A DNA stretch of 64,000 nucleotides from an uncultured Candidatus Saccharibacteria bacterium (lineage in GTDB: Bacteria; Patescibacteriota; Saccharimonadia; Saccharimonadales; UBA4665), in contig CAVUPG010000004.1 of NCBI GenBank assembly GCA_963743435.1, forward strand, positions 176,238 through 240,237. Reading direction: 5' to 3'. A program made the translations under genes and the position numbers. A model generated the notes under the pieces. That model ran no database searches, had not been told where the DNA came from, and worked only from the letters and a program-made list of their open reading frames with translations. Below are positions 12,821 to 47,271 of this stretch, in pieces. Each line of letters starts with the position of its first letter. The first letter of the stretch is position 1.

Positions 12821-13583
12821 TCAGAGGCCGGCACGCTGCACCACTTCCTGTGCAAGCGCCTTGTACGATCGAGCGCCCTTGCTCCATTTGTCATGTTCGA
12901 ATATGGTCTTGCCATGACTTGGCGCCTCTGCCAATCGGATGTTACGTGGTATTACTGTCTTAAATACACTATCGCCAAAATGCTGGGTGACCTCCGTTTG
13001 TACCTGCTCACTCAACACCGTTCGCTTCGTATACATCGTCAGCAGCACCCCGAAAATCGTTAAGCGAGGGTTAAGCCCCTGGCGTACCAGTTGTATTGTT
13101 TGCATGAGCTGACTGAGCCCCTCGAGTGCGAAGTACTCGGCCTGGACAGGTATCAGCACCCCGTTTGCTAGCTGTAAGTGCATTGACCGTCAATAGGCCC
13201 AGAGCTGGCGGGCAGTCAATGATAATAACGTCGGCTTGCACATTCATGAGCAAATCGGTCAGCTTTGTCTCTCTACTATCAACTGTTACTAGATCAACCT
13301 CTGCCTGTGCCAGCGCTCCGTTTGTCGGCAAAATGTAGAGGTTTTTGATGCGTGTAGCTAATAATACGTCCCCGACGGCTTGTGTACCAATTAGTGCATC
13401 ATAGAGTGTTAGCTCAAGACCCTCTTTCTCTATCCCAAGACTACTGGTGGCATTCCCTTGTGGATCCAGATCAACCAGGACAACACGACGCTTGGCGGAT
13501 GCAAGTTGTGCAGCCAAATTCACCGCGGTCGTCGTTTTACCAACTCCGCCCTTTTGATTTGTCACAGCCAGAACGAATGCCAT
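12821..13583 (-). CDS. parA: chromosome partitioning ATPase ParA/Soj; one frame break
   Basis: The N-terminal ORF 13071..13583 has the deviant Walker A NQKGGVGKTT. The C-terminal ORF 12821..13183 continues with ANGVLIPVQAEYFALEGLSQL. A 1-nt indel lies near 13160-13175 (AAA/GGGG runs). A strong SD (GGAGGAGG) lies upstream. Confidence 0.9.
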
Positions 13584-14050
13584 CGGTTATTACCCTCTTT
13601 CCTCCTCCAATCCTACCAGATATATCGCTAGTGGTAAACAAATTTATACCCAACCATATAGTACTAGTTCTATAGTACGCGCCCTATCGGCTACATTATG
13701 TGCGCATTCTATACTACTATGCCTAGTAAATTAACAGATGGAGAGATGCAATGAATAACCAAAGTAATTGCAAGTGGTTTGGGTGAGCTTTATTCACCCA
13801 ATTTGGAGCATGAATCAGTGTCATGCCGTATTGTGCGACATTCGCCTACCTCTAGGTGGCTATGATAACCAACCTTTGATCTTTGTATATTGCCCGTTTA
13901 GTAGATAAATCATTGACGAATGGTACACATGGTTGTTTTGCGATACAAAATGAAGCAATATTGCCTATTTTTGGCCCTAGCTGCTTCATATTGAACCTTT
14001 GCCATGTGCATAGACGATGAGAGCCGTACAATTTGACACAAAAAGAAAAA

Positions 14051-14078
14051 GCAGGGTTTGCGAGAGTCCCTGCTTTTT
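14051..14078. terminator. bidirectional intrinsic terminator-like hairpin
   Basis: gcaggg (14051-14056) / ccctgc (14068-14073) with an 11-nt loop. A-run on the 5' side and T-run on the 3' side, so both strands end in U-tracts. Confidence 0.55.
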
Positions 14079-14250
14079 CAATTTTTTTGAGTCGTTTTTG
14101 TTTTTGTTTGTTTGGTTTTTCGATTTTGACCAGCTGGTGCTACGAGAGCAAGAGCCTTGTGGCAAAATCTAAGCTTTAGTATGCGCTAACGCTAAAAATA
14201 ATGCAATAGTTTTTGTGCACATTTTTTACTCATGTGTGTATTTTCACCCC

Positions 14251-14431: not shown

Positions 14432-17400
14432 CTAGAGCGAGATGTTTTGCTTTACACCGGCTCTACTAAACCAGTTACCGCCGTGCAGTAATGTTTGCAT
14501 AAGGGGGCCATACGACGTCTCAGCAATATTGTTAGCCCCCAGCTGACTACCCGCACTCGTTGCAACCCTTACACAAAAGTCCTTCCCCTTCAGAGCCGCA
14601 TTATCAACAGTTAGTGGGAGGAGCCACATCGCATCTTCACCAGCATACACGGTCGATTGGCTATTTGAGAAATTGTTCGATTCATTGTAGGTTTGTGCCC
14701 GAATAGTTCGTGAGCCGTCTGTAAGATCGTTACTGCCGGCTAACAGTGTGGTGGGGTTACCTAAAGTTGGGTTGTCATAATACCTCAATGTCGTAGCTGA
14801 GGTAACATCACTATAATTTCCACTAGTTACCGCGCTACAAGTTGCCGCAGACCCCCGCAGAGCGTACTGGAGCTTGAATGCCTGGCTGCCCGCGCTTATC
14901 CCGCTATTATCCACTCGTATGACAACGCCAAGATATACCGCTAATAAAGACGGCATGTCGTACGGTTTATTTTCTGGAGCTAGAGCCGACCCCGCTGCGA
15001 TTCCACCACTAACCGCGACTATAGGGGTAGTGTCACTCGTGTAGTCAGTTCCGTCACTGTAGTTTGTGCTGGTGTAGTCGGTGCCGTCAGATTCATTAAC
15101 ACTCGTGTAGTCGGTTCCGTCACTGTAGTTTGTGCTGGTGTAGTCTGTGCCATCTGACTTATTTAACACTGGTATAATCGTCCCATCCACTTTCATTGTG
15201 CTGGTATAGTCCGTACCATCAGATCGGCAATACGTACCACAACCGCCAATACTACCATCGCTTTTATACTTCGCTAGTAGCGCCACACTAGTGCCACCGC
15301 CGAAACTATACGTATACCCAGCTACTGCATAGCCACCATCGTTGGTTTGTACAACAGAAAATGCTGTGTCGGTACTATTATAGCCAAGTGTTTTGCTCCA
15401 GCTGAGCGTGCCTGTGCTGGTAAATTTAGCCAGGAACATGTCCGTTGACCCGTACCCGAACAATGTGCTCCCCACGACTGCATAGCCGCCGTCACTGGTT
15501 TGAACTAAAGGAAAACCATAGTTATTAGTACTGCCGCCCCAGGTTTTGCTCCAGCTGAGCGTGCCGGTGCTGGTGTATTTGGCCAGGAAGACATCAGTCG
15601 TATCTCCGCCAAAACTTTTCGTGTAGCCAGTAATGGCATAGCCGCCGTCGCTCGTTTGAACGACTGACTTGCCTTCTTCGGCTCCAGCTGCACCGCCCCA
15701 GGTTTTGCTCCAGCTGAGAGTGCCTGTGCTGGTGAATTTAATGAGACACATATCCTTGCTGCCGGAGGTGAAGCTTTGACTATAACCGGTAATAGCATAG
15801 CCGCCGTCACTAGTCTGGATAATGGAAGCACCCTGCTCGTAAGATGTACCGCCCCAGGTCTTGCTCCAGCTAAGCGTGCCGGTGCTGGTGTATTTTAGGA
15901 GGATTACATCATCCTGCCCAGCGCCTATAGTTGCGTTTGCTCGCCCAGTAAGCGCATAACCACCGTCGCTTGTCTGAACAATTGAATAAGCCTCCTCGTT
16001 ACTAGCCGCACTTCCCCATGTCTTGCTCCAGCTGAGGGTACCGGTGCTAGTGTATTTCAATAAACAAGCATCGTAGTTGCCGGCACCGTATCCTGAAGTA
16101 GAGCAGGCAATCGCATAGCCGCCATCGCTGGTCTGGATTATTGAATATGCAGTATTATACCCCCCATTTGTAGCACCCCAAGTTTTGCTCCAGCTCAAGA
16201 CGCCTGAGGAGTCAAATTTCGCAATAAATACATCGTAGTTGCTGGGGAAACTCCCAGTGTACCCCGTCATTGCATAACCGCCGTCGCTAGTATGTATGAC
16301 AGAGCGAGCGATATCAGAGCCATTACCACCCCAGCCCTCGGCGAATGTTACGCCCTGATCGTCAATCCCGTCGAACATACGATATGACTGCTGTGTAAAG
16401 CTTGCGGCTGGCGTCGTGATTTCAGGATATACCGTGTAGGTATTGAGGTCTGTGCCATCGCTCTTTACTACCTTGAAACAGTACGTGGTGTTTTGTAGGG
16501 TATTCTGCCCAACTAATGCAAAGTCCCACATGCCATCCTGACCAGCGGACACGGATGCGGTGGTAGTAAAAATAGAAGTACCGTACTCATGGTACGACTG
16601 TGCAATATTACTGTCTGCACTATGCACAGGATCGGCTGCGTTCGTTTGCAGGGGCAACCCATTACCCGCTTTAGGGTTATTGTAATATCGTATAGTCGTA
16701 CTATCAGTTACATCACTATATGTGCCCGAAGATACGGCGCTACATGAGCCCGCTCCGCCTTTTTCAGCATATTTCAGTTTGTAGCTGAAATAGCCTGCTG
16801 CCAATTGCGCACCCGACACATGCATATCCAGCCGGAGTCTAAATGGAGTACCGTCTCCAGGCGCAGTCGCTGCAGTATCTTGGCCTGCAAGTGCAGCACC
16901 AACATCGATAGCCGGCGCGGAGTTTATGAGGACAGTTAGTGTGCTCGTATAATCAGTACCGTCGGTCTTCTTTGTGCTGTTGTAATCTGTACCGTCGGCC
17001 TTCATGGCGCTGTTGTAATCGACGCCATCTGAGTGATGCGTGTAGGTGTAGTCGACGCCTTCGGTTTGCGTAGTGCTCGTGTAATCGACGCCGTCGGTTT
17101 TGACGATACCGGTGTAGTCAACCCCATCGGTTTTACATACCGTAGAGCAGTTAGTCATTGCTCCAGTGGACGTAAATTTCAGCAATAGTACTTGCTGATT
17201 ACTACTGCCGACGAAGGTGCTGCCAGCGATAACATAGCCGTCGTCATCTGCTTGAGCAATTGAGTATCCGTATGAGCCAGAGGCACCATCCCACTCTTTA
17301 CCCCAGCTAAAAGCACCTGCACTGGTGAGCTTAATAAGTATCACTGGGCCGCCACCCAGTCCAACCGCGTTCCCGTAGCCCGTGTATGCCAACCCACCGT

Positions 17401-18979
17401 CGCTTGTCTCGACAATAGACTCTGCAACATCAGTGTTACTGGTGCCCCATGTCGTACTCCAGCTAAACGTTCCGGTGCTTGTAAACTTCGCTACAAAGGC
17501 ATCAAATCCGCCTGCGCCGAAACTGCTAGTAGACCCTGCGATAACTAGCCCGTTATCACTCGTTTCTGTGAGACTATTACAGCCACTCGCTCCGCCCCAC
17601 AATTTAGACCAACTTAAACTTCCGGAATTGCTATATTTCACCAGGAACACATTACTACTGCCAGAGGTACCGGCGACCGCATACCCAGTATCTGATGTTT
17701 GTATGACTTTTTTAGCAATATCATTGTTGGTACCTCCCCAAGTTCTACTCCAACTCAGCGTCCCAGAACTCGTGAACTTCGCGATGTACATATCGTCTAA
17801 CCCCCCACCGGTGTAGCTGGTGGTTGACCCTACCATGACATAGCCCCCATCTGCGCTCTGAATAACAGAGTATGCCCTGTCATTCGAGGTGCCTCCCCAG
17901 GTTTTGCTCCAGCTCATGGTACCGGTGCTATCATATTTTGCTATAAATGCGTCAGTTAGGCCCGTTCCAAAAGAAGCTGTTTGCCCAACGACTATATAGC
18001 CGCCGTCACTCGTCAGCGCAAGGCTTTCACCAGTGTCATTCGAGGTGCCTCCCCAGGTTTTGCTCCAGCTCATGGTACCGGTGCTATCATATTTTGCTAT
18101 AAATGCGTCAGACTGTCCTGCCCCAAAGCTTTTAGTGGTACCTCCCACAGCATATCCGCCATCAGATGTCTGTAAGATGGTAGAGGCAACATTGTCTTGA
18201 GTCCCAGTGCCTCCCCACTTGTTGGCAAATGTCACATCACCACTATCAGTATTATTGAACCAGCGGTATGCAGATTGATTAAGTACTATAGATGATGTAT
18301 ATGTTAGTGTAGCGTACACATTGGCAATCTGCAGCGTATCCGCCTGGCCAGATGGGTTACCGCTCCCCTGTTTGACTCGAGTAATCTGAGCTTGCATACT
18401 GTCGACAGCAGTTTGATTCCATGAGCCGTTAAATGTAGCTGTACATGCCGTCCAACTATTGTATGCGGGGGTACACGTTCCTGCTGTCTGCAGCGTGCCA
18501 CTCACACGCAGATTGATACTGAGATCATCGAGAGTACCACCGTTTGCATTCGTGGTGCTCTCCGCATAAACCCGCACCACAACTTGGGTAGCGGTCGACA
18601 CATCTGCGGGGGATGTCAGGCCGTATTCTTCGACTTCACCACCGCCAGTACTTCCACTGGTAGTAACATAATCGGTGGTTTTATCGGTGGTGCCTTCATC
18701 CACAAAATCACAGTGCGTACCGCCCGCACAGGTACTATCGGTTGTTCCGCCTGTGGCTGGCCAGCCGGTCGTAACATCTGTATTCGGTACAAGCGTCACG
18801 CTAACTGCTGAACTGAAAATCGTGTTGCCGAGTAGCAGTCCTAGAGTTACAGTCAAAACTGCGACACCTGCTGATTTAACCGTGCGGTAGCGCCACCGCA
18901 TGTACCAATGCCATGCTGGAGAAACCATCAGCCTGAGGTTGTGAATTATTACTCGTAGAAAGGTGGAAGCGCTTTTCAT
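14432..18979 (-). CDS. giant signal-anchored repeat protein: 2 x [seven SBBP-like beta-propeller repeats + six 11-aa DG(T/V)DYT repeats + beta-sandwich module]
   Basis: Intact 1515-aa ORF. TM helix at about aa 36-58. There are 7+7 repeats of about 42-45 aa of the type TSDGGYAxxGxTxSFGxGxxDxFxAKYxSTGTLSWSKTWGG. The start codon lies 1 nt after the stop of the upstream fibre gene. Confidence 0.8.
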   Translation of the reverse strand: MKSASTFLRVIIHNLRLMVSPAWHWYMRWRYRTVKSAGVAVLTVTLGLLLGNTIFSSAVSVTLVPNTDVTTGWPATGGTTDSTCAGGTHCDFVDEGTTDKTTDYVTTSGSTGGGEVEEYGLTSPADVSTATQVVVRVYAESTTNANGGTLDDLSINLRVSGTLQTAGTCTPAYNSWTACTATFNGSWNQTAVDSMQAQITRVKQGSGNPSGQADTLQIANVYATLTYTSSIVLNQSAYRWFNNTDSGDVTFANKWGGTGTQDNVASTILQTSDGGYAVGGTTKSFGAGQSDAFIAKYDSTGTMSWSKTWGGTSNDTGESLALTSDGGYIVVGQTASFGTGLTDAFIAKYDSTGTMSWSKTWGGTSNDRAYSVIQSADGGYVMVGSTTSYTGGGLDDMYIAKFTSSGTLSWSRTWGGTNNDIAKKVIQTSDTGYAVAGTSGSSNVFLVKYSNSGSLSWSKLWGGASGCNSLTETSDNGLVIAGSTSSFGAGGFDAFVAKFTSTGTFSWSTTWGTSNTDVAESIVETSDGGLAYTGYGNAVGLGGGPVILIKLTSAGAFSWGKEWDGASGSYGYSIAQADDDGYVIAGSTFVGSSNQQVLLLKFTSTGAMTNCSTVCKTDGVDYTGIVKTDGVDYTSTTQTEGVDYTYTHHSDGVDYNSAMKADGTDYNSTKKTDGTDYTSTLTVLINSAPAIDVGAALAGQDTAATAPGDGTPFRLRLDMHVSGAQLAAGYFSYKLKYAEKGGAGSCSAVSSGTYSDVTDSTTIRYYNNPKAGNGLPLQTNAADPVHSADSNIAQSYHEYGTSIFTTTASVSAGQDGMWDFALVGQNTLQNTTYCFKVVKSDGTDLNTYTVYPEITTPAASFTQQSYRMFDGIDDQGVTFAEGWGGNGSDIARSVIHTSDGGYAMTGYTGSFPSNYDVFIAKFDSSGVLSWSKTWGATNGGYNTAYSIIQTSDGGYAIACSTSGYGAGNYDACLLKYTSTGTLSWSKTWGSAASNEEAYSIVQTSDGGYALTGRANATIGAGQDDVILLKYTSTGTLSWSKTWGGTSYEQGASIIQTSDGGYAITGYSQSFTSGSKDMCLIKFTSTGTLSWSKTWGGAAGAEEGKSVVQTSDGGYAITGYTKSFGGDTTDVFLAKYTSTGTLSWSKTWGGSTNNYGFPLVQTSDGGYAVVGSTLFGYGSTDMFLAKFTSTGTLSWSKTLGYNSTDTAFSVVQTNDGGYAVAGYTYSFGGGTSVALLAKYKSDGSIGGCGTYCRSDGTDYTSTMKVDGTIIPVLNKSDGTDYTSTNYSDGTDYTSVNESDGTDYTSTNYSDGTDYTSDTTPIVAVSGGIAAGSALAPENKPYDMPSLLAVYLGVVIRVDNSGISAGSQAFKLQYALRGSAATCSAVTSGNYSDVTSATTLRYYDNPTLGNPTTLLAGSNDLTDGSRTIRAQTYNESNNFSNSQSTVYAGEDAMWLLPLTVDNAALKGKDFCVRVATSAGSQLGANNIAETSYGPLMQTLLHGGNWFSRAGVKQNISL
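15025..15235 (-). repeat. in-frame 33-nt tandem repeat (6 copies, xSDGTDYTSTx)
   Basis: Encodes RSDGTDYTSTM KVDGTIIPVLN KSDGTDYTSTN YSDGTDYTSVN ESDGTDYTSTN YSDGTDYTSDT. Confidence 0.85.
16945..17140 (-). repeat. in-frame 33-nt tandem repeat (6 copies, KTDGVDYTxxx)
   Basis: Encodes KTDGVDYTGIV KTDGVDYTSTT QTEGVDYTYTH HSDGVDYNSAM KADGTDYNSTK KTDGTDYTSTL. Confidence 0.85.
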
Positions 18980-18980
18980 C

Positions 18981-21900
18981 TTAGTAATTCTCGTTAAAGC
19001 CGAATTGGAACGAACCGATTCGGACTAAATTAGTTTGCGGGCTGATGGCCGTCGGCTTAATGACGAAGGTTATCGTATCGTTTGCCGAGAAGCTACACCC
19101 GTTCCCGGGGTCGCTGATTGTCGTGGACGTCCATGATCCGGTTTGTTTGATCGACTGAGCCGATGCGTAGCAGCTCGTACCGCTTGCATCTTTTATCATG
19201 ACGGTTGCATCGGTGCTGGTGCCAGAGTCGAGGTATGACCAGAAGGTAAAGCTGCTGGAGGTGAACGACGTAAAGCCACTTGGGAGTTGGTACTGCACCA
19301 CTATGTCATAGTCCTGTGCCGTCCCCTGGTCAGTTGTCCATGCGTAGTAATTTCGCCCGGCAGTTGCATCGTAGTCGCTGGTCATGAAGCCCGTATTATT
19401 CGAGCCATCCGCCGAGAATACCGTGCTTGGGAACTCTGGGTTGATTTTGACGGTACGAACATGCGAGGAGCCGCTGCCGGTGGTGTCACAGTCAACCCAG
19501 CCCGTCGTGTAGCACTTGAACTTGTTGTTGGTGCTGTCGTAGTACATTGCACCGGCAAGACCTGTCGGCGTGATGGTAGATGGCACATTGTCGAGCACAA
19601 GAAGGGTGACATCGCCCGCAGCAGAAGCAGTACTATCGCCAATCTTGATGCGGTTGTTGCTCGTATCAGCCTGGAAGAGTACCTGGCTGCCGCCATTGTT
19701 TTGTATCTGAAGAGCGGTCGCCGAGTCAGCGAGCGGGCGAATTGTCGGCGTGTACACGCTCGTACCGAAGTAGCCGCTGCGCCAGGTGATAGCAGAGCTA
19801 CCGAGGTCGTCGGTGTTGGTAGTGTCAGAGATGAGGCTGGTGTTGATAGCGACACTGGCAAGGTTACTGAGCGCCTGGTTTGCGCCGCCACCGCCACCGC
19901 CGCAGCCCGAGCTCATCGTACAGATAGTATCGTTTCCAGTCAGGTCTGGGATACTCAGGGTGAAGCTACCAGTTGTCTGCGTAGCAGAAGTGAGGGTAAC
20001 GACATAGTTATTCGTGACGTTAGCGAAAGTAATCTTCCCGCTGACGGCGTTCGTACCGCCGTTGTAGTTACCGAGTTCAATTTGGCCAGAGGTGGTGTTT
20101 ACGTTCAGGACCGCGACACCGTTGCCGTCTTGTATATTGACGGCCGAGCTAGAGCTGGCTTGCCTGAAGCGGATGTCTTGGCCATTTGCCGCTATTGCCT
20201 GCCCAGAATATACAGTGCCTGTACCGAGGTCAAAGATACTTGTAGCACCCGTACCGTAGAAGAGATTGGAGGACAAAATATTGTATTGCTGTGACGAATT
20301 CGGTATGTAGATAGCGTATCCGGTACCAGCAGTGTCGGTGATGACGTTATTGTTTACGAGGTTGTAACTACCTGTTAGGTATATGCCGCCATTGTTAGAA
20401 CTACCACCTGGGTTAGTTATAGTGTTGTTGGAGAGTTCGTTATTGTTATTTGAGCCATTCATGTATATAGCATAACCACCCGAATTCACTACTGTATTCC
20501 CTGTGATACTGTTGTATTTACCGCCCACGTTTATACTTATTCCCTTGCTGTCCCCGGTTGAACTATTTCCTGAGACAGTTGTATAGCTCGCAGATACATA
20601 GATGCCGATGTTCGTGTTACTGACAGTTTTGTTACCGGAGATGATAGCACCATCTGTCAACACAGTGAGACCCTGGGCGTTTGATACAGCGGTATTATTC
20701 GTGATGCGCGCGGAGGCACTATTCGAAAGATACAACGCATAATTCTGGTTTGATGCAAAGTAGTTACTCGTGACAGAGGCATAGTTGACGCCTGTCATGC
20801 TAACACCGTATGTTGCGTTGTTGTATACGTATGACCTTGTGATCGTAACGTAGTTGATATTACTCATGTACATACCATTGGAACGGAAATTGCTGACCGA
20901 AACTCCATCGATTAGAATACCCGGTGCGCTGTTGGTTGCACTGGAGCTTAGATTAATACCTGTCTGCGTTCCAGAACTGTTGTTAGCCCGGTTACCGTCA
21001 ATTACTAGGTTTCTGATAACCATCCCTGATGCTCCCGTGGCGTTTATGACATTCACGGCCGCGTTTACAGAGTTAGCTAATTTTAAGACGGTTGCATTAT
21101 CAGTTCCGGCGAGGATCACATTTGTCCCGATATTTATCGCTCCATCCACGATGTATGTCCCATCCAGCAGGTACACAGTACCACCACTGGCTGGCAGAGC
21201 TGCGATAGCTGCGTTTATGGTGGTCTGGGCACTGGTACAGCTTGTATCGACGTAGTCGGCGCCGTCGTAGTTCTGTGAAGCAGTTGGGGTGGTACCAGTA
21301 CAACCAGTGGTTGGGCCCATGGCGACTATCTTGGTGGCGGTAGAGCGATCACTCACCCACTTGGTACCGTTGTACTGGAGGAGTTGGTGAGTACTGGTGT
21401 CGAAGTAGAGCATACCCTCGGTTGGAGAGCCGGGGCGAGAGGCGGTGTTGCCGCCGGTGAAGGAGATAGTTTGGTTAGCACCGAGGACAGCACCAGCATT
21501 GATGTTGACACTGTCGTTGAGGTTAATGGTCCCTGCCCCGTCGAGAACGATGTTACCACTCGTGGTGGTGGTAAGGTTGAGGTCACCGCTGGTGACGTTG
21601 AGGGCTGCACTGAGGTTGGTGGAGGCGATGTTGCTGAGGCTTGTGTTGGCGCCGCCGGCACCACCACAACTGGTCCAACCTAGCACACCACTGCCGGTTG
21701 TGTCTGACAGACAGTCGCCAGAGCTACCGAGGCCGGTTGGGAGGGTGAGATTGTAGCTGGTGCTAGTAGCACCAGACTGGATACCGACGTTATTGGCGTT
21801 GGTAGAGTTGTTGAAGACAATCTTACCGTTGACGGCGTTAGAGGCGTTGTACTCACCAAGCTCTATCTCTCCGTTGGTGGTGTCGACATTAAGGACGTTT

Positions 21901-24900
21901 CGTCCATTGCCATTCTGGATGGAAACAGCGGCAGATGAAGCGGCTTGTTTGAAGCGGACATCGAGGCCACCGGCGGTCATAGCTTGGCCGGCGTAGATGG
22001 TAGATGTGCTAGCATCGTTGATGGTCGTGGCACCGGTGCCGCTAAAGGTGTTACCAGAGAGGTAGGTATTGCTGTCTGTGCTTGCGCCAATGCGTATAGC
22101 GTACCCCGTACCCGCCGTATCAGTGATTTTGTTGTCGGTTATAGTGGTGTTAGTTGCGTATGTGTTCAGATATATAGCGTCGTTGGCACCTGAGCCGCCA
22201 TTGTCATAGAAAATGTTTCCCGTAATCTTGTTATCACTAGAGGGAAGGCCTACAGCACCGTTTAGTTGGATACCGCCCTGTAGGTTAGCACTAAGATCAT
22301 TTCCGCTAATAACCGAGCGGGTAGTGACGTATAGGATGATGCCGGGATCAAAACCTGAGCCCGTTGCCGTTACGGAGTTGGAATGTATGGTCAGATAGTT
22401 TGAGTATTGTGCGGCTATACCGCCCTGAGCACTTAAATTAATCTTGTTGTTCGACAGCGTAACGTGATCTGCCTCAACAGATATGCCATAGGTACTGCTG
22501 TTGGCAATCGTGTTAGCATCAACGACAGTGTAATCGCCCTTCATTTGAATGCCGTAGCCGTTGTTGTCTATAGCGTTGCTAGAGATAGTGTTGTGTTGGC
22601 TACTTGCACCATAGCTATAAATACCGGTATCGGTATTATCGGTGATAGTGTTTCCGGTAATAACGCTGTTGACCATATTCGAGGCATATATACCGATGGT
22701 CGAGTTGAGGATAGCGTCAGACTTGTCGGCTTGCCACTTGCCGAGGGCAGAGTTGTATACCAACAATTGCTTGTTTGTTGTGTCGTAGGTAGTCATGCCA
22801 TCAACTGGGCCACCGTAGCCACTGATATTGGCGTAGGTGTCACCCGCCAGTCTCAGGGTTTTACCAGAAGCCACCGTAGTGTTCTGGTTGAGGTTGATGC
22901 TGGTAGCATTTGTCGTACCAATGTTTAGTGTGCCTGCGGAGGCGGTGTCGAGAGCGGTACCCTGGAAGCTGGCGGCGGTTAGTTGGCCAACGAAGTTTGA
23001 GGTCCCGTCGTCGTAGAAGCTCATTATCTCAGAACCGGCATTATTCATGAATGCAAGGCGTGAATCTATACCGGTGGTTGACACCAGTTGCGATATCGTA
23101 AAGGTACGGCTCGTACTAGAGCTGCCGTTCCAGTATTTGCCAGTCATGTTGATGCTCATAGCATTATATACAGGGTTAAATGAGGTTGCGTTCGCTGCTG
23201 CCTGGAGGTTTAGCTTGTTATTGGTGCTATCTACCCTCAGGATCGGCTGTGAGCCACTATTCTGAATGACAAATACGCCAGTGCTACTCGTACTACCGAT
23301 TTGGGTGGTACCGCTGACTTCAAGATTGTAGCTTGAAGGTGTCGTGTTTATGCCTATGCGCTGGTTACTGGTGTCGACCGTAAGTATAGATTGTGTGCCT
23401 GCGGCATTTTGGATACGTATACCTGTAGTAGAGTCAGTGACAGCGCTAATAGTGCCACTCGCCAGACCATCATTAAACGTCTTGAGACCACCGAAGGTCT
23501 GGGCACTGTGTGTCACTAGGCCGGTGTGAGTGGCAGTTGCCTCCTGGAGGTAGATGGTGGTGGTACTGATGCTGGCGCCATTGTCACTGTAGGTACCACC
23601 GTCTAGGGCACCGACGGTAGTGACTCCGGAGCCAGTGCCCCCACCACAACTGGTGAAGCCTAATACACCACTGCCGTTGGTATCGACCAGACAGTCACCA
23701 CTACTGCCGAGGGCGGTTGGGAGAGTGAGGGTGTAGTCTGCGCTGGTGGCACCACTCTGGAGCTTGACGGTGTAGGTATTGCTACTGTTATTAAAGGTTA
23801 AGACACCGTTGATTGGGTTAGTGGCATCATACTGACCCAGCTGGAGCTCACCATTGGTGGTGTCAGCATTGAGCAGGTTGATGCCGTTGGCGTCTTGGAT
23901 GTTGACGGCACTAGTAGATGCGGCTTGTTTGAAGCGGATGTCGAGGCCACCCGCGGTCATTGCCTGTCCTGCGAAGATAGTGGTGGCACCTGCATCGTTG
24001 ATTGCCGTAGCTCCCGTGCCAGAGAATATGTTGCCAGACAGTACGTTACTTACCGCATTGCCGTCCGGGAGGTTTATGGCGTAGCCGGTACCCCCGTTGT
24101 CAGTGATTACGTTATCCGCAATGCGGCTGTAGCGACCTTGGTAGTAGATGCCGCTTGCTGTCGTGGTAACAGTACCAGAGTTCGTAATAGTGTTGCCTAT
24201 GATGGCATTGTAGTCACCGCCCGACCTCACCTGTATACCATGAGAGGTCGCGTTATATATAGTATTGCCGCTGTACGTAACACCTACAGTACTGGCACCA
24301 AACTGCGTGCCAAACTGGTCACCATCAGAGGTGTTCCCCGTAACAGTAGCGTAACTTGCAGGCACAATTCCTGCCCCAGCGTTGCTTGCTGTGTGGTTTC
24401 CAGTGATTACTGCCCTAGGCGTAGACAGACCAATACCATAGTTTCCGTTTGCCTTCGCAATGTTACCGGTCACACTTACACGACTCGACGCCATAATTTG
24501 CGCACCAACAGATGAGTTATTGTTAAACTTGTTACCACTAATGACCCAGTCGTTCCCTCCGCTTACATACAGACCTATTGAACCGTTACTGTCAATCAAA
24601 GAGTTACGGATGGTAAGTTGGTTCATGTTCCTGACGTACGTGCCATACTGCCTGAAGTTACGAGCGGTTACTTGCTCTATAGTTATTCCTGGCGTCGTGT
24701 TGCTGATTGAACCATTCTGAATGTTTATACCAATCTGGTTACCGCTACTGTTATTCGCTTTGTTGCCATCGAGCACTATGTCACGGAACGTTATGCCCGA
24801 GACATCGACGGAGTTTGAGATCATACTAATATTCGCATTGATACCATTCTTCAGCTTCAATATCGTGCTTTGGCCCGCACCTGCAATTGTCACATTGCTC

Positions 24901-25121
24901 GGCACTGTCACTGCACCGTCAATGATATACGTCCCATCCAGCAGGTACACAGTACCACCACTGGTTGGCAGAGCGGCGATGGCGCGTTTATTTCTGTCTG
25001 GGCACTGGTAGAGCTGGTAATGACGTAGTCTGCGGCGTCGTAGTTCTGACTGGCGATGGGTGGTGCCGGTACAGCCGTGGTCGGACCCATGGCGACTATC
25101 TTGGTGGCGGTGATCGATCAC
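18981..25121 (-). CDS. giant fibre protein A, distal 2/3: three pectate-lyase-like parallel beta-helix domains, stalk modules, conserved C-terminal domain
   Basis: 2046-aa ORF. PbH1-type repeats (NxxIxxNxxxGI...) lie at about 23960-24985, 21990-22720 and 20200-21240. Only codons downstream of about 24985 (AIAALPTSGGTVYLLDG...) are in the true frame. The ORF-track N-terminus (24986-25121) is out-of-frame read-through of the junction with ORF 25096..27609. Confidence 0.8.
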   Translation of the reverse strand: MIDHRHQDSRHGSDHGCTGTTHRQSELRRRRLRHYQLYQCPDRNKRAIAALPTSGGTVYLLDGTYIIDGAVTVPSNVTIAGAGQSTILKLKNGINANISMISNSVDVSGITFRDIVLDGNKANNSSGNQIGINIQNGSISNTTPGITIEQVTARNFRQYGTYVRNMNQLTIRNSLIDSNGSIGLYVSGGNDWVISGNKFNNNSSVGAQIMASSRVSVTGNIAKANGNYGIGLSTPRAVITGNHTASNAGAGIVPASYATVTGNTSDGDQFGTQFGASTVGVTYSGNTIYNATSHGIQVRSGGDYNAIIGNTITNSGTVTTTASGIYYQGRYSRIADNVITDNGGTGYAINLPDGNAVSNVLSGNIFSGTGATAINDAGATTIFAGQAMTAGGLDIRFKQAASTSAVNIQDANGINLLNADTTNGELQLGQYDATNPINGVLTFNNSSNTYTVKLQSGATSADYTLTLPTALGSSGDCLVDTNGSGVLGFTSCGGGTGSGVTTVGALDGGTYSDNGASISTTTIYLQEATATHTGLVTHSAQTFGGLKTFNDGLASGTISAVTDSTTGIRIQNAAGTQSILTVDTSNQRIGINTTPSSYNLEVSGTTQIGSTSSTGVFVIQNSGSQPILRVDSTNNKLNLQAAANATSFNPVYNAMSINMTGKYWNGSSSTSRTFTISQLVSTTGIDSRLAFMNNAGSEIMSFYDDGTSNFVGQLTAASFQGTALDTASAGTLNIGTTNATSINLNQNTTVASGKTLRLAGDTYANISGYGGPVDGMTTYDTTNKQLLVYNSALGKWQADKSDAILNSTIGIYASNMVNSVITGNTITDNTDTGIYSYGASSQHNTISSNAIDNNGYGIQMKGDYTVVDANTIANSSTYGISVEADHVTLSNNKINLSAQGGIAAQYSNYLTIHSNSVTATGSGFDPGIILYVTTRSVISGNDLSANLQGGIQLNGAVGLPSSDNKITGNIFYDNGGSGANDAIYLNTYATNTTITDNKITDTAGTGYAIRIGASTDSNTYLSGNTFSGTGATTINDASTSTIYAGQAMTAGGLDVRFKQAASSAAVSIQNGNGRNVLNVDTTNGEIELGEYNASNAVNGKIVFNNSTNANNVGIQSGATSTSYNLTLPTGLGSSGDCLSDTTGSGVLGWTSCGGAGGANTSLSNIASTNLSAALNVTSGDLNLTTTTSGNIVLDGAGTINLNDSVNINAGAVLGANQTISFTGGNTASRPGSPTEGMLYFDTSTHQLLQYNGTKWVSDRSTATKIVAMGPTTGCTGTTPTASQNYDGADYVDTSCTSAQTTINAAIAALPASGGTVYLLDGTYIVDGAINIGTNVILAGTDNATVLKLANSVNAAVNVINATGASGMVIRNLVIDGNRANNSSGTQTGINLSSSATNSAPGILIDGVSVSNFRSNGMYMSNINYVTITRSYVYNNATYGVSMTGVNYASVTSNYFASNQNYALYLSNSASARITNNTAVSNAQGLTVLTDGAIISGNKTVSNTNIGIYVSASYTTVSGNSSTGDSKGISINVGGKYNSITGNTVVNSGGYAIYMNGSNNNNELSNNTITNPGGSSNNGGIYLTGSYNLVNNNVITDTAGTGYAIYIPNSSQQYNILSSNLFYGTGATSIFDLGTGTVYSGQAIAANGQDIRFRQASSSSAVNIQDGNGVAVLNVNTTSGQIELGNYNGGTNAVSGKITFANVTNNYVVTLTSATQTTGSFTLSIPDLTGNDTICTMSSGCGGGGGGANQALSNLASVAINTSLISDTTNTDDLGSSAITWRSGYFGTSVYTPTIRPLADSATALQIQNNGGSQVLFQADTSNNRIKIGDSTASAAGDVTLLVLDNVPSTITPTGLAGAMYYDSTNNKFKCYTTGWVDCDTTGSGSSHVRTVKINPEFPSTVFSADGSNNTGFMTSDYDATAGRNYYAWTTDQGTAQDYDIVVQYQLPSGFTSFTSSSFTFWSYLDSGTSTDATVMIKDASGTSCYASAQSIKQTGSWTSTTISDPGNGCSFSANDTITFVIKPTAISPQTNLVRIGSFQFGFNENY

Positions 25122-27534
25122 TCACCCACTTGGTACCGTTGTACTGGAGGAGTTGGTGGGTACTGGTGTCGAAGTAGAGCATGCCCTCGGTTGGAGAGCC
25201 AGGGCGTGAGGCAGTGGTGCCACCGGTAAAGGAGATGGTTTGGTTAGCGGCGACGACCGCACCAGCGTTTATGTTGACACTGTCATTGAGATTAATGGTC
25301 CCTGCCCCGTCGAGGACGATGTTACCACTCGTGGTGGTGGTAAGGTTGAGGTCACCACTGGTGACGTTGAGGGCTGCACTGAGGTTGGTGGAGGCGATGT
25401 TGCTGAGGCTTGTGTTAGCACCGCCTGCGCCACCACAACTTGTCCAACCTAGCACACCACTGCCGGATGTGTCTGACAGACAGTCACCAGAGCTACCGAG
25501 TGCTGTCGGGAGAGTCAACGCGTAGCTGGTGCTGGTGGCACCGGATTGGATGCTGACGGTGTTGGTATTAGCTGTATTATTGAAGACGATCTTGCCATTG
25601 ACGGCATTGGTGCCGCCATTGTAGTTACCGAGCTGAACTTCCCCATTGGTGGTATCAGCGTTGAATAGGTCGACGCCGTTGGCGTCTTGAATTGTGAAGC
25701 TATTGGTACTGCCATAATCGGTTGTCACGATTACGCCACCATTCGCACCTGCTCCAATTGGAGCCCCGCCCGATAATATTAAGTTACCTCCATTTGCATC
25801 ATTTGTTGGGGATAAGGATATAATCGAGTAATATTGAGGCCCGGTCGGGCTAGAGGTGAACGTCTGTGAGAGCGTACCGTTCGACCCACTGACGCTGTAG
25901 CCAATCATACCCCCGCTGCCGGTTGAGGCATTGTTCTGGGCTAAAACAGTACCTGTAGTGATACCCACAGTGTCATTATTTTGTCGAACTGCACCAGCGT
26001 ATAGGACGAGATCTCCTGAGCTTACATTTACCGGTCCAACGACCGTAGAAGCCGAGCCAGTAAACGATTGGTAGCCTATATGGTCATTCACAGCACCGAC
26101 ATCGTGCACCCCTATAATACCGACCTCCCCATAACCTGCGCCAGTAAACGTCACGGTCACGGAACCCCCTATGTCGCCCAGTGTCACCGTCTTGTAGTAC
26201 AGCGCACCACACATGCCTGCGCCACAAGTGTACTCAGGCCGAGTCCAACCCGCGGGAGTATTAATACCATTGTATTGCTCGACAGACATGACAAGCATAT
26301 CACCGACCGATAGACCAGTCGGGTAGCTCGCCACCATACTCGCTACGTTATTTACATGGGTAAGCGTGTGACCAACTATAGTAGGCGATCCTGTAGCAGT
26401 TGCATTACCGGCTCTGACGCTCAGGCTGCTCCCAGTGCCGCTGGTCGCATCCGCTACTGAAATCGTGTGCGGTGTATCACCGCCGAAAGTGACATCGCCA
26501 GCTGCATTTACATCATCATTGAGATTAATGGTCCCTGCCCCGTCGAGGACGATGTTACCACTCGTGGTGGTGGTAAGGTTGAGGTCACCACTGGTGACGT
26601 TGAGGGCGGCGCTGAGGTTGGTGCTAGCGATGTTGCTGAGGGAGGTGTTGGCTCCTGTAGAACCGCTACAGTTTGCGAGCGTGACGAGACACAGGGTGTC
26701 ACTCGTGCCAGCGAGGTCTGGGAGACTAACGGTACCATTACCCACCGTCTGTGCTGCAATACTCAGGCTCACCTTGTACGCATTGGTGCTGTTGAACAAG
26801 TCAATTGTTCCCGTGGTGGTGCTGGCGGTACCGACAGCCAAAGAGGAGCCGAAGATACCTTTGCCGGAGATGTTGAGGTTACCGGTCTGAGCAGTACCCG
26901 GTGTGCTGCCTTGGAGCTGGATGAAGCCAGCATTCGCTTCGTTCTCGGTGAGGAGATTGTAGCTGCCGGCTGCACCTTGATCACGGATCTGGAACGTCTG
27001 GTCACCGACGGTTGGAGCCTGTAGCGTGAGCGTCGAGCTCAGTGCACCACTCGTCGTGATGAGCTGACTCGCTGTCTTCGCATTGAACGCATACGGTACG
27101 GCGGTGAGGGAGAGGCGTGGGGACATCTCACCGTCCCATGAGTTGGAGGTGCCAGTACCACCGATGTCCATGGTGAGGTAGAGCTGCTGGTCCCATGGGA
27201 TGGTGGATGGGAAGCTGGTGATGGCACCGAGGTCAACGCTGAGGTAGCCGTTGGCAACTCTGACTCGGTTGTCAGGAGAGCCACCGTTGTAGTCACGGGT
27301 TTCAGTCCAGAGGAGGGTGCCACCAGTGGAGGCGTCGTAGAGCTTGAAGCGGACGTTGTAGTTGCCGTCTGGGGCGATCTGGCCGGCTCCCTTCTGGAGG
27401 CGGGCTTGGAAGTTCAGGGTGTCGTTGGTGGCAGCATACGCAGGCGTAGACACGCGCGTAAGGAAAAACAGGGGTAGGATGAGCAAGAACAAGACCGAGA
27501 TAGCGCGGGCCATGGTGAGGATACGACCAGACAT
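25096..27534 (-). CDS. giant fibre protein A, proximal part (signal peptide, conserved N-terminal domain, unique globular insert, stalk module)
   Basis: Start chosen at MSGRILTMARAISVLFLLILPLFFLTRVSTPAYA|ATND (GAGGGG SD 8 nt upstream). It ends artificially at WVSDRSPPPR*, where paralogues continue WVSDRSTATKIVAMGPTT... Confidence 0.8.
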   Translation of the reverse strand: MSGRILTMARAISVLFLLILPLFFLTRVSTPAYAATNDTLNFQARLQKGAGQIAPDGNYNVRFKLYDASTGGTLLWTETRDYNGGSPDNRVRVANGYLSVDLGAITSFPSTIPWDQQLYLTMDIGGTGTSNSWDGEMSPRLSLTAVPYAFNAKTASQLITTSGALSSTLTLQAPTVGDQTFQIRDQGAAGSYNLLTENEANAGFIQLQGSTPGTAQTGNLNISGKGIFGSSLAVGTASTTTGTIDLFNSTNAYKVSLSIAAQTVGNGTVSLPDLAGTSDTLCLVTLANCSGSTGANTSLSNIASTNLSAALNVTSGDLNLTTTTSGNIVLDGAGTINLNDDVNAAGDVTFGGDTPHTISVADATSGTGSSLSVRAGNATATGSPTIVGHTLTHVNNVASMVASYPTGLSVGDMLVMSVEQYNGINTPAGWTRPEYTCGAGMCGALYYKTVTLGDIGGSVTVTFTGAGYGEVGIIGVHDVGAVNDHIGYQSFTGSASTVVGPVNVSSGDLVLYAGAVRQNNDTVGITTGTVLAQNNASTGSGGMIGYSVSGSNGTLSQTFTSSPTGPQYYSIISLSPTNDANGGNLILSGGAPIGAGANGGVIVTTDYGSTNSFTIQDANGVDLFNADTTNGEVQLGNYNGGTNAVNGKIVFNNTANTNTVSIQSGATSTSYALTLPTALGSSGDCLSDTSGSGVLGWTSCGGAGGANTSLSNIASTNLSAALNVTSGDLNLTTTTSGNIVLDGAGTINLNDSVNINAGAVVAANQTISFTGGTTASRPGSPTEGMLYFDTSTHQLLQYNGTKWVSDRSPPPR

Positions 27535-27685
27535 GACGAGACCCCTCAAGTCGGGGTGACTGGGGGTATGACGAGGCGGTATGGGCGTATTGCCTGAGAG
27601 ACCTGGCATGTGTTTTTGGTTTGTTTGGTTTGGTTTTAAAGTTTTGGAAAGTTTGTGTGTGTATCGGTTTTGGTTTTGGTCGATA
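27071..27685 (-). repeat. shared 5' module, copy A (proximal leader + signal peptide + N-terminal domain)
   Basis: Near-identical by eye to 41664-42275. The coding part also matches 55331-55749. Confidence 0.8.
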
Positions 27686-40205: not shown

Positions 40206-42128
40206 CTATCGAGCCGTTGCCTGAAACAATGTTATTCGAGATTGTCGTACTTTATCTCCAGCTAATATACCCATATTGCCATTCGAGCTTACCGTGTTGC
40301 CACTAATAAGTAGGCCGCTAGTCGAGCTGCTGTCGATACCTCTACTTGAGTTTGAGGTGACAGTGTTGTTGACTATTTTTGCGTTGGGTGCACCCTTAAT
40401 GTATAGGCCAGAGTTATTTGTCACGCCTTTGATTGTGCTATTCTCTATCGTGCTTGAGTTAAAGTTATTGGCGTACACTGCCACGCTCCGCGTGTTTTGA
40501 ATGGTTATATCGGAAATAATCACGCCCGGCGTGCTCGTGACATTCGTGTATATACCTTGGTGGTTTGCACTACCGTTGTTCGCGGCATTACCATCCAACA
40601 TCATGTTAGTGATTTTCACCCCGGCCGAGCTGGTAGTGACCATGTTTATCGTAGCTGTGCTGTCGGCGATAATCAGCTTTGTGCCGACACCGGAGCCAGT
40701 AAACGTCACATTGGCCGGGATGGTTATCGCACCGTCAATCACATACGTCCCCTCCATCAAGTACACAGTACCACCGCTAGCTGGGAGGGCTGCAATGGCT
40801 GCATTTATGGTGGTCTGGGCACTGGTACAGCTGCTGGCAACATAGTCAGCACCGTCGTAGTTCTGTGAAGCAGTTGGGGTGGTACCAGTACAACCAGTGG
40901 TTGGGCCCATGGCGACAATCTTGGTGGCGGTAGAGCGATCACTCACCCACTTGGTGCCGTTGTACTGGAGGAGTTGGTGAGTACTGGTGTCGAAGTAGAG
41001 CATACCCTCAGTTGGTGAAACAGGGCGAGAGGCGGTGTTGCCGCCGGTGAAGGAGATAGTCTGGTTGGCACCGAGGACAGCACCAGCGTTGATGTTGACG
41101 CTGTCATTGAGGTTAATGGTCCCTGCCCCGTCGAGGACGATGTTGCCACTCGTGGTGGTGGTAAGGTTGAGGTCACCACTGGTGACGTTGAGGGCTGCAC
41201 TGAGGTTGGTGGAGGCGATGTTGCTGAGGCTTGTGTTAGCACCGCCACCACCTCCTCCGGTACAGTTGGCGAGCGTGACCAGACAGAAGGTGTCGCTCGT
41301 ACCGGCTAGATCTGGAAGACTGACGGTACCATTCGCAACCGTCTGCGCAGCAATGTTTAGACTCACCTTGTACGCACTGGCGCTGTTGAACAAATCGATT
41401 GTTCCGGTTGTGGTACTAGCCGTACCGACGGCTAATGAGGACCCAAAGATTCCTTTGCCGGAGATGTTCAGGTTACCCGTTTGGGCGGTGCCCGGGGTGC
41501 TGCCTTGGAGTTGGATGTAGGCACCATTGGCAGCTGCGCCGGTCAGGAGCGTGTAGGTACCAGCGGCGCCCTGGTCCGGGATGACGAAGGTCTGGTCACC
41601 GACAGTTGGAGCTTGGATGCTGAGGGTTGAGCTCAGTGCACCACTGGTGGTGACGAGCTGTGAGGCTGTCTTCGCATTGAACGCATACGGTACGGCGGTG
41701 AGGGAGAGGCGTGGGGACATCTCACCGTCCCATGAGTTGGAGGTGCCAGTACCACCGATGTCCATGGTGAGGTAGAGCTGTTGGTCCCATGGGATGGTGG
41801 ATGGGAAGCTGGTGATGGCACCGAGGTCAACGCTGAGGTAGCCGTTGGCAACTCTGACTCGGTTGTCAGGAGCACCACCGTTGTAGTCACGGGTTTCAGT
41901 CCAGAGGAGAGAGCCACCAGTGGAGGCGTCGTAGAGCTTGAAGCGGACGTTGTAGTTGCCGTCTGGGGCGATCTGACCTGCTCCCTTCTGGAGGCGGGCT
42001 TGGAAGTTCAGGGTGTCGTTGGTGGCAGCATACGCAGGCGTAGACACGCGCGTAAGGAAAAACAGGGGTAGGATGAGCAAGAACAAGACCGAGATAGCAC
42101 GGGCCATGGTGAGGATACGACCAGACAT
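40206..42128 (-). CDS. fibre C, N-terminal fragment: signal peptide, conserved N-terminal domain, stalk module, beta-helix domain 1
   Basis: Same MSGRILTMARAISVLF... start and SD as fibre A. It continues WVSDRSTATKIVAMGPTTGCTGT...AIAALPASGGTVYLMEGTYVIDG without a break, which shows how the fibre A junction should read. Confidence 0.8.
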   Translation of the reverse strand: MSGRILTMARAISVLFLLILPLFFLTRVSTPAYAATNDTLNFQARLQKGAGQIAPDGNYNVRFKLYDASTGGSLLWTETRDYNGGAPDNRVRVANGYLSVDLGAITSFPSTIPWDQQLYLTMDIGGTGTSNSWDGEMSPRLSLTAVPYAFNAKTASQLVTTSGALSSTLSIQAPTVGDQTFVIPDQGAAGTYTLLTGAAANGAYIQLQGSTPGTAQTGNLNISGKGIFGSSLAVGTASTTTGTIDLFNSASAYKVSLNIAAQTVANGTVSLPDLAGTSDTFCLVTLANCTGGGGGGANTSLSNIASTNLSAALNVTSGDLNLTTTTSGNIVLDGAGTINLNDSVNINAGAVLGANQTISFTGGNTASRPVSPTEGMLYFDTSTHQLLQYNGTKWVSDRSTATKIVAMGPTTGCTGTTPTASQNYDGADYVASSCTSAQTTINAAIAALPASGGTVYLMEGTYVIDGAITIPANVTFTGSGVGTKLIIADSTATINMVTTSSAGVKITNMMLDGNAANNGSANHQGIYTNVTSTPGVIISDITIQNTRSVAVYANNFNSSTIENSTIKGVTNNSGLYIKGAPNAKIVNNTVTSNSSRGIDSSSTSGLLISGNTVSSNGNMGILAGDKVRQSRITLFQATAR

Positions 42129-42275
42129 GACGAGACCCCTCAAGTCGGGGTGACTGGGGGTATGACGAGGCGGTATGGGCGTATTGCCTGAGAGACCTGG
42201 CATGTTTGAGTTTTGGGTTTTGGTTTAGTTTTTGAAAATGTTTGTTTGTATCGGTGTTTTGGGTTTGATTGATAC
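41664..42275 (-). repeat. shared 5' module, copy C
   Basis: See 27071-27685. Confidence 0.8.
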
Positions 42276-45284: not shown

Positions 45285-45523
45285 ACTTGAGGTAGCGAAC
45301 TGACTGATACTGCCGTCACTGACGTTAATCTTGGCATAGAGGAGGTCATTGAGTGACCCGCCCTCAGAGACGTTAAGCCCGCGAGCGCATAGAGATAGCC
45401 GTTGTAGCCAAAGGCAGACCCACGCCGACGGACCGGGTTCAATTCGACCGGTACATCATCGCCATTGCCTTTGATGCCATACGGGCCCCGCGTCGCTGGC
45501 AGATATCCACGCGCTGCCACCAT
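45281..45523 (-). CDS. Kelch-like protein fragment
   Basis: Contains YNGYLYALAG. Short piece between frame breaks. Confidence 0.45.
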   Translation of the reverse strand: MVAARGYLPATRGPYGIKGNGDDVPVELNPVRRRGSAFGYNGYLYALAGLTSLRAGHSMTSSMPRLTSVTAVSVSSLPQV

Positions 45524-46052
45524 CTGCCGCCACGATGTTGTTAGAATTATCTATCTTGGCGTACAGCACCTCGCCACGCTCACCCTCGTTCGGGCTCTGG
45601 CCGCCGATGAGATAGATGTAGTTGGCATAGACCGTACCGGCTGCTACCCCGAGACCCTGCGTGCCAGCGGTTGTTTCTGAGTCAATCTGGAGTTGTCCGC
45701 TCGTCGTACAGGTGCTACCCGATGTTTCTAGCGATCCGTCAGTCTTAATATAGCACTTATACACTTCTGTGTAGAGCGTACCTGTGCAGTCGAGGCCGTT
45801 ATCTGCCGCCGTGACACCGCTACAGCCACCGAGCACATAGAGATTCCCTGGGTATGTACCAGCCGATGACGGATTTGCCCGGGTAAACGCGTACTGGTAT
45901 CCCTTAGCGTTACCGAGCCCTACATTGCCAAATGTCTGAGTGGACCACGATCCCCAGGTACCATCGCTATTAAAGGTCGACCCGCATAACCGTATCTTGC
46001 CACTGCGTACCTGTCGTTCCACCGATGATGTACATGGTGTTGTTAAACACAC
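45456..46052 (-). CDS. Kelch-like protein fragment
   Basis: Contains GNLYVLGGCSGVTAADNGLDC and ANYIYLIGGQ. Confidence 0.6.
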   Translation of the reverse strand: MCLTTPCTSSVERQVRSGKIRLCGSTFNSDGTWGSWSTQTFGNVGLGNAKGYQYAFTRANPSSAGTYPGNLYVLGGCSGVTAADNGLDCTGTLYTEVYKCYIKTDGSLETSGSTCTTSGQLQIDSETTAGTQGLGVAAGTVYANYIYLIGGQSPNEGERGEVLYAKIDNSNNIVAADGGSAWISASDAGPVWHQRQWR

Positions 46053-46299
46053 TATACCCGAATGCGGAAATTTTGTCTGGCATCGATCCGCTGCCGTTTA
46101 TCGCGCACCAACTACCTACGAAACTGCCTGAGCAGCTCGAAATTCGTGTGATGTGTCCTGCGGAATCGATAGCAGCATATGCGATGTTGTCGGTCGACTT
46201 CCCAGAGTTACCTGTGAAACACACACTATTATTCCCAACTGCCGTGCAGCCCCCGATGTAGTAAATGTAGCCATTGTTGATTATGGCACCCCCGGACAT
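45970..46299 (-). CDS. Kelch-like protein fragment
   Basis: Contains NNGYIYYIGGCTAVGNNSVC and NNTMYIIGGT. Confidence 0.55.
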   Translation of the reverse strand: MSGGAIINNGYIYYIGGCTAVGNNSVCFTGNSGKSTDNIAYAAIDSAGHITRISSCSGSFVGSWCAINGSGSMPDKISAFGYSVFNNTMYIIGGTTGTQWQDTVMRVDL

Positions 46300-46345
46300 A
46301 CCCCCCGCCTGGCCGTTACCATCCCCCTGTGGTGGCAGGTCGCAG

Positions 46346-47218: not shown

Positions 47219-47271
47219 ACAGATACAGATAGCCGTTATACGCCACTAGGGAGGCGCCTTGACGTACCTGG

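Follow-up and report, generated by a model that had tools for sequence, protein, structure and literature searches.

A 64,000-nucleotide stretch of an uncultured Candidatus Saccharibacteria genome (contig CAVUPG010000004.1 of assembly GCA_963743435.1, positions 176,238 to 240,237; hereafter, the window) encodes, directly behind a phage-like fibre gene (fibre A), a large modular protein of β-propellers and immunoglobulin-like (Ig-like) β-sandwiches, which we call P0001. On balance, we favour the view that P0001 is a Sec-exported, exchangeable receptor-binding partner of this host-attachment fibre, and we see in it a strong candidate for the role of an exchangeable "gripping head" in host recognition by Saccharibacteria (TM7). 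In the choice and holding of hosts by the ultrasmall epibionts of the Candidate Phyla Radiation (CPR; Patescibacteria), little beyond type IV pili, Pam pili and a few adhesins has been implicated to date. The fibre and its exchangeable propeller partner offer a concrete, widely conserved pair that can be tested.

Pairing with fibre genes and exchange of the payload

The stop codon of fibre A and the start codon of P0001 lie 1 nt apart (TAA-G-ATG), as the preliminary description of this DNA had observed. The linkage with fibre genes to which that description pointed proved to be conserved in other genomes. We examined 24 related loci and tabulated their domains. In all 14 loci that encode a protein ending in the Ig-like domain (here termed mod) and that include upstream DNA (L004, L005, L006, L007, L008, L016, L017, L019, L020, L022, L027, L031, L032 and L034), the gene immediately upstream on the same strand ends in the fibre C-terminal domain. 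These 14 are all such loci in the set, L021 being cut at the contig end. The gap of 1 nt recurs in L020, and the called genes overlap in L016 and L019. Mod proteins of the tabulated loci that have neither a terminal mod nor the conserved tail described below have no fibre gene upstream.

Both members of the pair vary widely. The fibre open reading frames (ORFs) span lengths between 479 aa and at least 3,285 aa, with one upstream product given as 5,359 aa, and the shortest, at ~480–550 aa, retain only a head and the C-terminal domain. The partners measure 680–2,300 aa and carry delta-60, Kelch or FG-GAP propellers, or none, as their payload; fibre length and payload vary freely among the paired loci. 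What stays is the C-terminus: 35 homologues end in mod followed by a tail of ~25 residues of the form P.M.Q.(M/L)R.G.(W/F)F....(K/R)Q(P/N).., and this pattern matched 12 of the 14 paired partners, missing L034 and L020, in which the tail is plain in the alignment. Because the flanking genes differ between several loci, the pair is kept beyond general synteny. These results strongly support the fibre C-terminal domain, paired with the terminal mod and tail of the partner, as the conserved element. In L016 (10001–19738), the gene for P0009 (propeller–mod–propeller, no tail) is followed directly by that for P0026 (propeller–mod–tail), and both may belong to one partner gene that a frameshift has interrupted.

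The comparison with L020, another uncultured Saccharibacterium, indicates that the payload moves. The ParA, ParB, LytR and HtrA proteins of L020 are 47–60% identical to those of the window, whereas its P0001 orthologue, which has the same length, is 92.5% identical as a protein. When the payload regions were compared (window 14559–18813 against L020 9158–13412), the DNA identity was 93–100% between roughly codons 60 and 1030, where several 150-nt windows reached 100%, then 91–93%, falling to 86–67% through the second mod and to ~40% at the tail and beyond. Upstream, it was 30–57% across the fibre C-terminal domain and the leader, and the leader stretch (residues 1–60) is 27% identical. Blocks of the fibre body are 94–99% identical between the two genomes and stand in a different order. 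A near-identical payload in divergent lineages therefore indicates a recent exchange at the same locus that left the fibre end, leader and tail specific to each lineage. The trading of a binding cassette between lineages whose flanking housekeeping proteins are only ~50–60% identical is direct sequence evidence for such movement, and it is the pattern expected for host-range determinants in an arms race. P0001 had no match in 23 of the 24 same-genus genomes searched, and the 24th matched mod only; this patchy distribution is in line with rapid turnover.

Domain anatomy of P0001 and its relatives

P0001 begins with an export leader, read from the sequence, with a likely Sec cleavage site just before VTLVPNTDV; the homologues have A-x-A-type sites at the same place. 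An N-terminal all-β domain follows (Table 1). It is present in ~25 homologues and had neither a Pfam nor a PDB sequence match, and the family is unannotated. The rest of the protein was described preliminarily as an internal duplication, each half comprising a seven-bladed propeller, six short repeats and a β-sandwich, and this layout was borne out. Residues 226–870 and 861–1515 align collinearly with 44% identity over 626 aa (E = 1e-157), and each array contains seven blades, starting at residues 271, 323, 375, 428, 476, 525 and 577 in the first and at 897, 950, 1003, 1056, 1109, 1161 and 1212 in the second. The blade period is 52–53 aa; the 42–45 aa given earlier was too short because the 41-aa motif on which it was based omits the variable inter-blade loop. 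The SWSKTWGG strand is missing from the last blade of each array and is found before blade 1 instead (TFANKWGG, TFAEGWGG), where it provides the fourth strand that blade 7 lacks, the usual "velcro" closure of propellers. A Cys..Cys pair closes each blade array.

The six DG(T/V)DYT units reported after each array repeat with a period of 11 aa (residues 618–683 and 1254–1319; 33/66 nt in the DNA). One unit of the second spacer is degenerate (DGTIIPV), and the 93%-identical L020 orthologue has DGTDYTS there. The module of ~170 aa after each spacer was likewise found as described, with the correction that the motif F(R/K)L(R/Q) merges two strands, namely FRLRL then YKLKYA in copy 1 and VYLGVVIRV then FKLQYA in copy 2.

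Table 1. Features of the P0001 gene and its surroundings, in coordinates of the window.
Feature	Position	Strand	Basis or remark
P0001, whole gene, exported modular propeller protein	14432..18979	−	1515 codons + stop
P0001 leader, residues 1–60	18800..18979	−	basic N-region, hydrophobic core 38–55; read from sequence
N-terminal all-β domain, residues 61–232	18284..18799	−	AlphaFold2 model all strands, pLDDT ~80
Propeller 1, residues 233–615, seven delta-60/DUF5122 blades	17135..18283	−	profiles, AlphaFold2, Foldseek, blade map
Spacer 1, residues 616–690, six 11-aa DG(V/T)DY(T/N) units	16910..17134	−	repeat analysis
mod1, residues 691–862, Ig-like β-sandwich, unannotated domain family	16394..16909	−	half-versus-half alignment, mod profile
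Propeller 2, residues 863–1251, seven blades	15227..16393	−	blade map, alignment to half 1
Spacer 2, residues 1252–1325, six 11-aa DGTDYTS units, one degenerate	15005..15226	−	repeat analysis
mod2, residues 1326–1490, terminal β-sandwich	14510..15004	−	AlphaFold2 pLDDT ~90–97
Conserved C-terminal tail, residues 1491–1515 (PLMQTLLHGGNWFSRAGVKQNISL)	14435..14509	−	same motif type ends 35 homologues
Fibre A, upstream partner: signal peptide, head domain, β-helix modules	18981..27609	−	one gene, two ORFs
Fibre A C-terminal domain, ~250 aa	18984..19736	−	co-occurs with mod + tail partners; locus comparison
Hairpin + U-run	14045..14079	−	~355 nt after the P0001 stop; ΔG −26.7 kcal/mol, z −4.5

The preliminary description assigned the blades to the seven-bladed β-propeller (SBBP) repeat. 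This was loosely right as to the fold and the general motif, but the SBBP profile itself, PF06739, gave no match to the whole protein at E ≤ 0.01 or to any of five segments at E ≤ 10. The SBBP lipoprotein model NF047494 (LipL53-type) reached 95.8 bits (E = 2e-27) against a cut-off of 400, and only the propeller blades aligned. By profile, the propellers are of the delta-60/DUF5122 type: TIGR02608 (delta-60 repeat) scored 124.8 bits (cut-off 76.5) and PF17164 (DUF5122) 57.4 bits (cut-off 27), and the two halves alone passed the latter with 42.8 and 44.7 bits. Homologue P0063 bears both PF17164 and PF06739. The Leptospira LipL53-type lipoproteins share with P0001 the general motif and the seven-bladed architecture and differ from it in that P0001 lacks a lipoprotein signal. 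The name of the delta-60 family implies a repeat of ~60 aa, compared with the period of 52–53 aa in P0001.

An AlphaFold2 (AF2) model of residues 57–620, based on an alignment of 15 rows, has a mean predicted local distance difference test score (pLDDT) of 83.7 and shows 28 strands (7 × 4) after the all-β N-domain, in agreement with the predicted propeller fold. The top Foldseek match was CylK (E = 5e-23, ~400 columns, root-mean-square deviation 2.5–3.9 Å), followed by the seven-bladed fucose-binding Photorhabdus lectins (TM-score ~0.73 on the target), with sialidases and one lyase ranking lower. The only sequence relatives with a solved structure were CylK entries (E = 3e-13 to 5e-15), and these matches cover the CylK propeller only, from chain residue 229 onward. 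The fold of propeller 2 is assumed from its 47% identity to propeller 1. Across 249 blades, variability was highest in the loop that precedes strand 1, at the end of strand 2 and in the loop that follows strand 2; the remaining loops and the cores of the strands are conserved. The two variable loops presumably lie on the same face of the propeller, given the general geometry of such folds, and would fit a variable binding face.

A second model (residues 1245–1515, alignment of 43 rows) is consistent with the β-sandwich that had been proposed for the module: mod is all-β with pLDDT above 90, and the spacer is at 50–56. In P0001, mod falls outside all Pfam and NCBIfam models, its profile gave chance-level matches only against PDB sequences, and its fold had no significant PDB match (best E = 3e-3, TM-score < 0.3) and none among the BFVD viral structures at E < 1e-3. 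The weak best fold matches are Ig-like, namely integrin alpha leg domains, C3 MG domains and pilus chaperones. Mod is a large domain family that no database annotates: at E ≤ 1e-3 the profile matched 2,114 representative proteins, of which 914 reached E ≤ 1e-30. A single protein may contain as many as 13 matched stretches, and some of the proteins give marginal matches to Ig-like models of Pfam, such as GBS104-like_Ig and MG2.

In 120 homologues, we found a common plan of signal peptide, N-domain of one of two types, propeller unit or units of 370–400 residues, short-repeat spacer and mod, with the unit repeated. The spacer sequence varies (DGTDYTS, SSPTATT, DRATAEV, TESNQTV), and related proteins carry Kelch or FG-GAP propellers in place of delta-60 ones.

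Proposed role, rival explanations and known systems

Could this modular protein serve as a plug-on head for the fibre? We propose that P0001 would be made from the same transcript as fibre A, probably by translational coupling, and would act as the dedicated partner of that fibre, possibly the stoichiometric tip or base component that the preliminary description had suggested. Its terminal mod and tail would dock it onto the conserved C-terminal (distal) domain of the fibre, and the N-domain and propellers would be presented as receptor-binding heads toward a ligand on the host surface, most likely a glycan. The payload between leader and tail would be a cassette swapped among lineages by recombination, changing what the fibre recognizes. 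In this scheme, the domain layout and folds, the export signals visible in the sequence, the conserved pairing of the genes and the exchange of the cassette are shown, whereas we infer the docking to the fibre, the attachment point, the ligand and the role in host recognition. By analogy, a distal position of the fibre C-terminus fits the MAT fibres of Bdellovibrio, in which the N-domain lies near the cell and the distal tips vary (PMC10769870), and a seven-bladed propeller protein of TM7x, PilX2, is required for host binding (PMC11623550). More broadly, and more tentatively, the Saccharimonadia may possess a two-component host-recognition device in which a phage-like fibre provides reach and anchorage and a separately encoded head of propellers and Ig-like modules plugs onto its conserved end and moves horizontally, at the same locus, between distantly related epibionts. 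If this is true, a swap of heads would re-target the fibre, much as phages swap their receptor-binding proteins, and the system would have new building blocks used across the CPR, namely mod, with its ~2,100 protein clusters, and the tail, which may serve as a docking or sorting signal.

Several observations weigh against this proposal. The closest solved homologue, CylK, is an enzyme and not a lectin, and no ligand-binding residues could be identified in P0001. The tail, which would make the contact with the fibre, is modelled at low confidence (pLDDT 50–60), and its counterpart on a second protein of the window, a Kelch propeller surface protein, matches the family tail weakly (hhalign probability 5%). 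Furthermore, adjacent genes of a surface locus can stay linked by co-regulation alone, and not all of the paired loci are independent, as several share flanking synteny.

These last points bear on the main rival explanation, in which P0001 is an independent adhesin or lectin, anchored or released alone, that shares an operon and regulation with fibre A and whose tail is a general sorting or wall-anchoring signal. We consider it unlikely. The gene does stand in a 45-kb region that is a run of surface-protein genes, and the linkage is in part a broader synteny, with ParAB, LytR and HtrA neighbours shared by L005, L008, L017 and L020. On the other hand, the pairing is kept in L007, L016 and L019 despite different flanks, and it is kept with mini-fibres that are reduced to the head and the C-terminal domain. 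The tail can be argued in both directions. It also occurs on the Kelch protein mentioned above (43479–48456, minus strand, at least four frame pieces), which follows fibre D and ends in the tail-like RLIHGKTFVGGEQQPLDTPF; mod was not detected in this protein, and only the tail aligns. However, P0001 and the Kelch protein alone bear the tail in the window genome, whereas a sorting signal of general use should be present on more than two proteins, and both follow fibres with the same C-terminal domain (31% identity between fibres D and A, E = 2e-24). Fibre C is followed only by a 154-aa ORF without a propeller or tail.

Phage fibre genes are often followed by helper genes, as in the T4-type arrangement of a tail-fibre gene and then an adhesin or assembly gene (gp37 with gp38). 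The position of the P0001 gene immediately downstream of fibre A, with probable translational coupling, and the conserved pairing with one particular fibre end domain could accordingly be taken to mean that mod and the tail mainly aid the folding or trimerisation of the fibre C-terminal domain, in the manner of phage tail-fibre chaperones. We judge this improbable, since partners of such size carry propellers and binding-type domains for which a chaperone would have no need, exchange between lineages affects the payload but spares the fibre end, and neither P0001 nor the fibre C-terminal domain matched any PHROG. The resemblance to gp37/gp38 lies in a smaller partner gene directly after the fibre gene and in conserved contact elements that flank exchangeable recognition parts. 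The differences are the absence of sequence or PHROG similarity, the far larger, multi-domain P0001, and a cellular setting in which the interaction is itself our proposal.

An enzymatic role is more improbable still. The best PDB relative by both sequence and fold is the alkylating enzyme CylK, and sialidases and a lyase stand further down the fold list, so a secreted enzyme whose propellers are catalytic, like those of CylK and of propeller-type glycosidases and lyases, had to be considered. The active site of CylK needs an N-terminal Ca2+ β-roll that supplies Arg105 at the domain interface (PMC8916777). No such β-roll is present in P0001, whose N-domain shows no match to that of CylK, and the catalytic Asp440 and Tyr473 align with R368 and D395, respectively, in the HMMER register, although a seven-fold repeat can be aligned in more than one register. 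The delta-60 family, moreover, occurs mostly in large surface proteins. A CylK-like enzyme was rejected because the catalytic N-domain is lacking. P0001 thus resembles CylK and other delta-60 proteins in passing the curated cut-offs and in having seven four-stranded blades, and it differs in that its propeller is one module of a repeated propeller–spacer–mod cassette.

For the receptor-binding partner that we favour, one functional parallel is the MAT fibre of Bdellovibrio (Caulton et al. 2024, PMC10769870), which likewise provides fibre-based recognition for a bacterium living on other bacteria and combines a conserved head near the cell with variable, exchangeable distal ends. In MAT fibres, the adhesive tip lies within the fibre chain, whereas P0001 is the product of a separate downstream gene that is kept with one particular fibre end domain and carries the variable binding modules; a term search of the text of that paper found no separate downstream partner. 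The architecture also recalls integrin alpha, in which a seven-bladed propeller is followed by Ig-like thigh and calf domains, as the P0001 propeller is followed by the Ig-like mod. The integrin leg domains are among the weak best fold matches of mod (probability up to 0.95; E = 3e-3 to 0.1), and some members of the P0001 family use FG-GAP propellers. However, these matches are not significant (TM-scores < 0.3) and there is no sign of common descent, so the likeness is one of architecture only.

Neighbouring genes and mod proteins outside fibre loci

Fibre A is read as two ORFs (25096–27609 and 18981–25121) split by several frame changes near 24950–25130, and its L020 orthologue is an intact ORF of 2548 aa with the modules arranged differently. 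Several genes in the window assembly are frameshifted, and some neighbouring ORF boundaries are therefore uncertain; P0001 itself is intact, as judged from the L020 orthologue of equal length. The fibre genes at 40206–42203 and 25096–27609 (both minus strand) are identical in their first 80 residues, which comprise the leader, the signal peptide and the start of the head. On the 3′ side, P0001 is followed by a hairpin with a U-run, likely the terminator that ends the fibre A/P0001 transcription unit, and then by ParA. The consensus terminator scan did not report this hairpin, whose loop exceeds the length that the scan permits. The ParA ORF (13071–13583, minus strand) encodes only 170 aa, compared with 254–255 aa in L005, L017 and L020, probably because a frameshift or an assembly error has truncated it. 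Scans of the window for tRNAs and Rfam families gave no matches. The genome comprises 947 kb in 8 contigs, and its closest named relatives are metagenome-assembled genomes of Candidatus Saccharimonadales and Saccharibacteria.

Several of the mod proteins that lack an upstream fibre gene stand first in operons of genes of 300–350 residues that include WxLIP-like proteins, an arrangement that resembles the Pam pilus operons of the CPR (PMC13278184). The window genome contains such a protein of 1271 aa (C8:14693–18508, minus strand) and a truncated copy (C3:260014–262744, plus strand), which is nearly identical to it but lacks the N-terminal part. Both are without propellers and have HxH-rich repeats and a pilin-like C-terminal end, for which the C8 protein gave no match in the PDB. 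The C8 gene is followed in its operon by genes of 313, 352, 322 and 465 aa, and the 322-aa product reached 27.4 bits against the WxLIP_PGBD cut-off of 27.3. Two features of Pam operons, the pilin-like C-terminal domain and the downstream WxLIP-like or pilin genes, are thus present in the C8 paralogue and absent from P0001. The propeller and mod modules of P0001 do recur on proteins encoded first in operons that resemble those of the Pam pili (Troman et al. 2026, PMC13278184), for example, on P0029 in L018 and, for mod, on the 1271-aa C8 protein. P0001 differs from them in having the C-terminal tail in place of the pilin-like domain and in standing behind a fibre gene rather than in a Pam-type operon.

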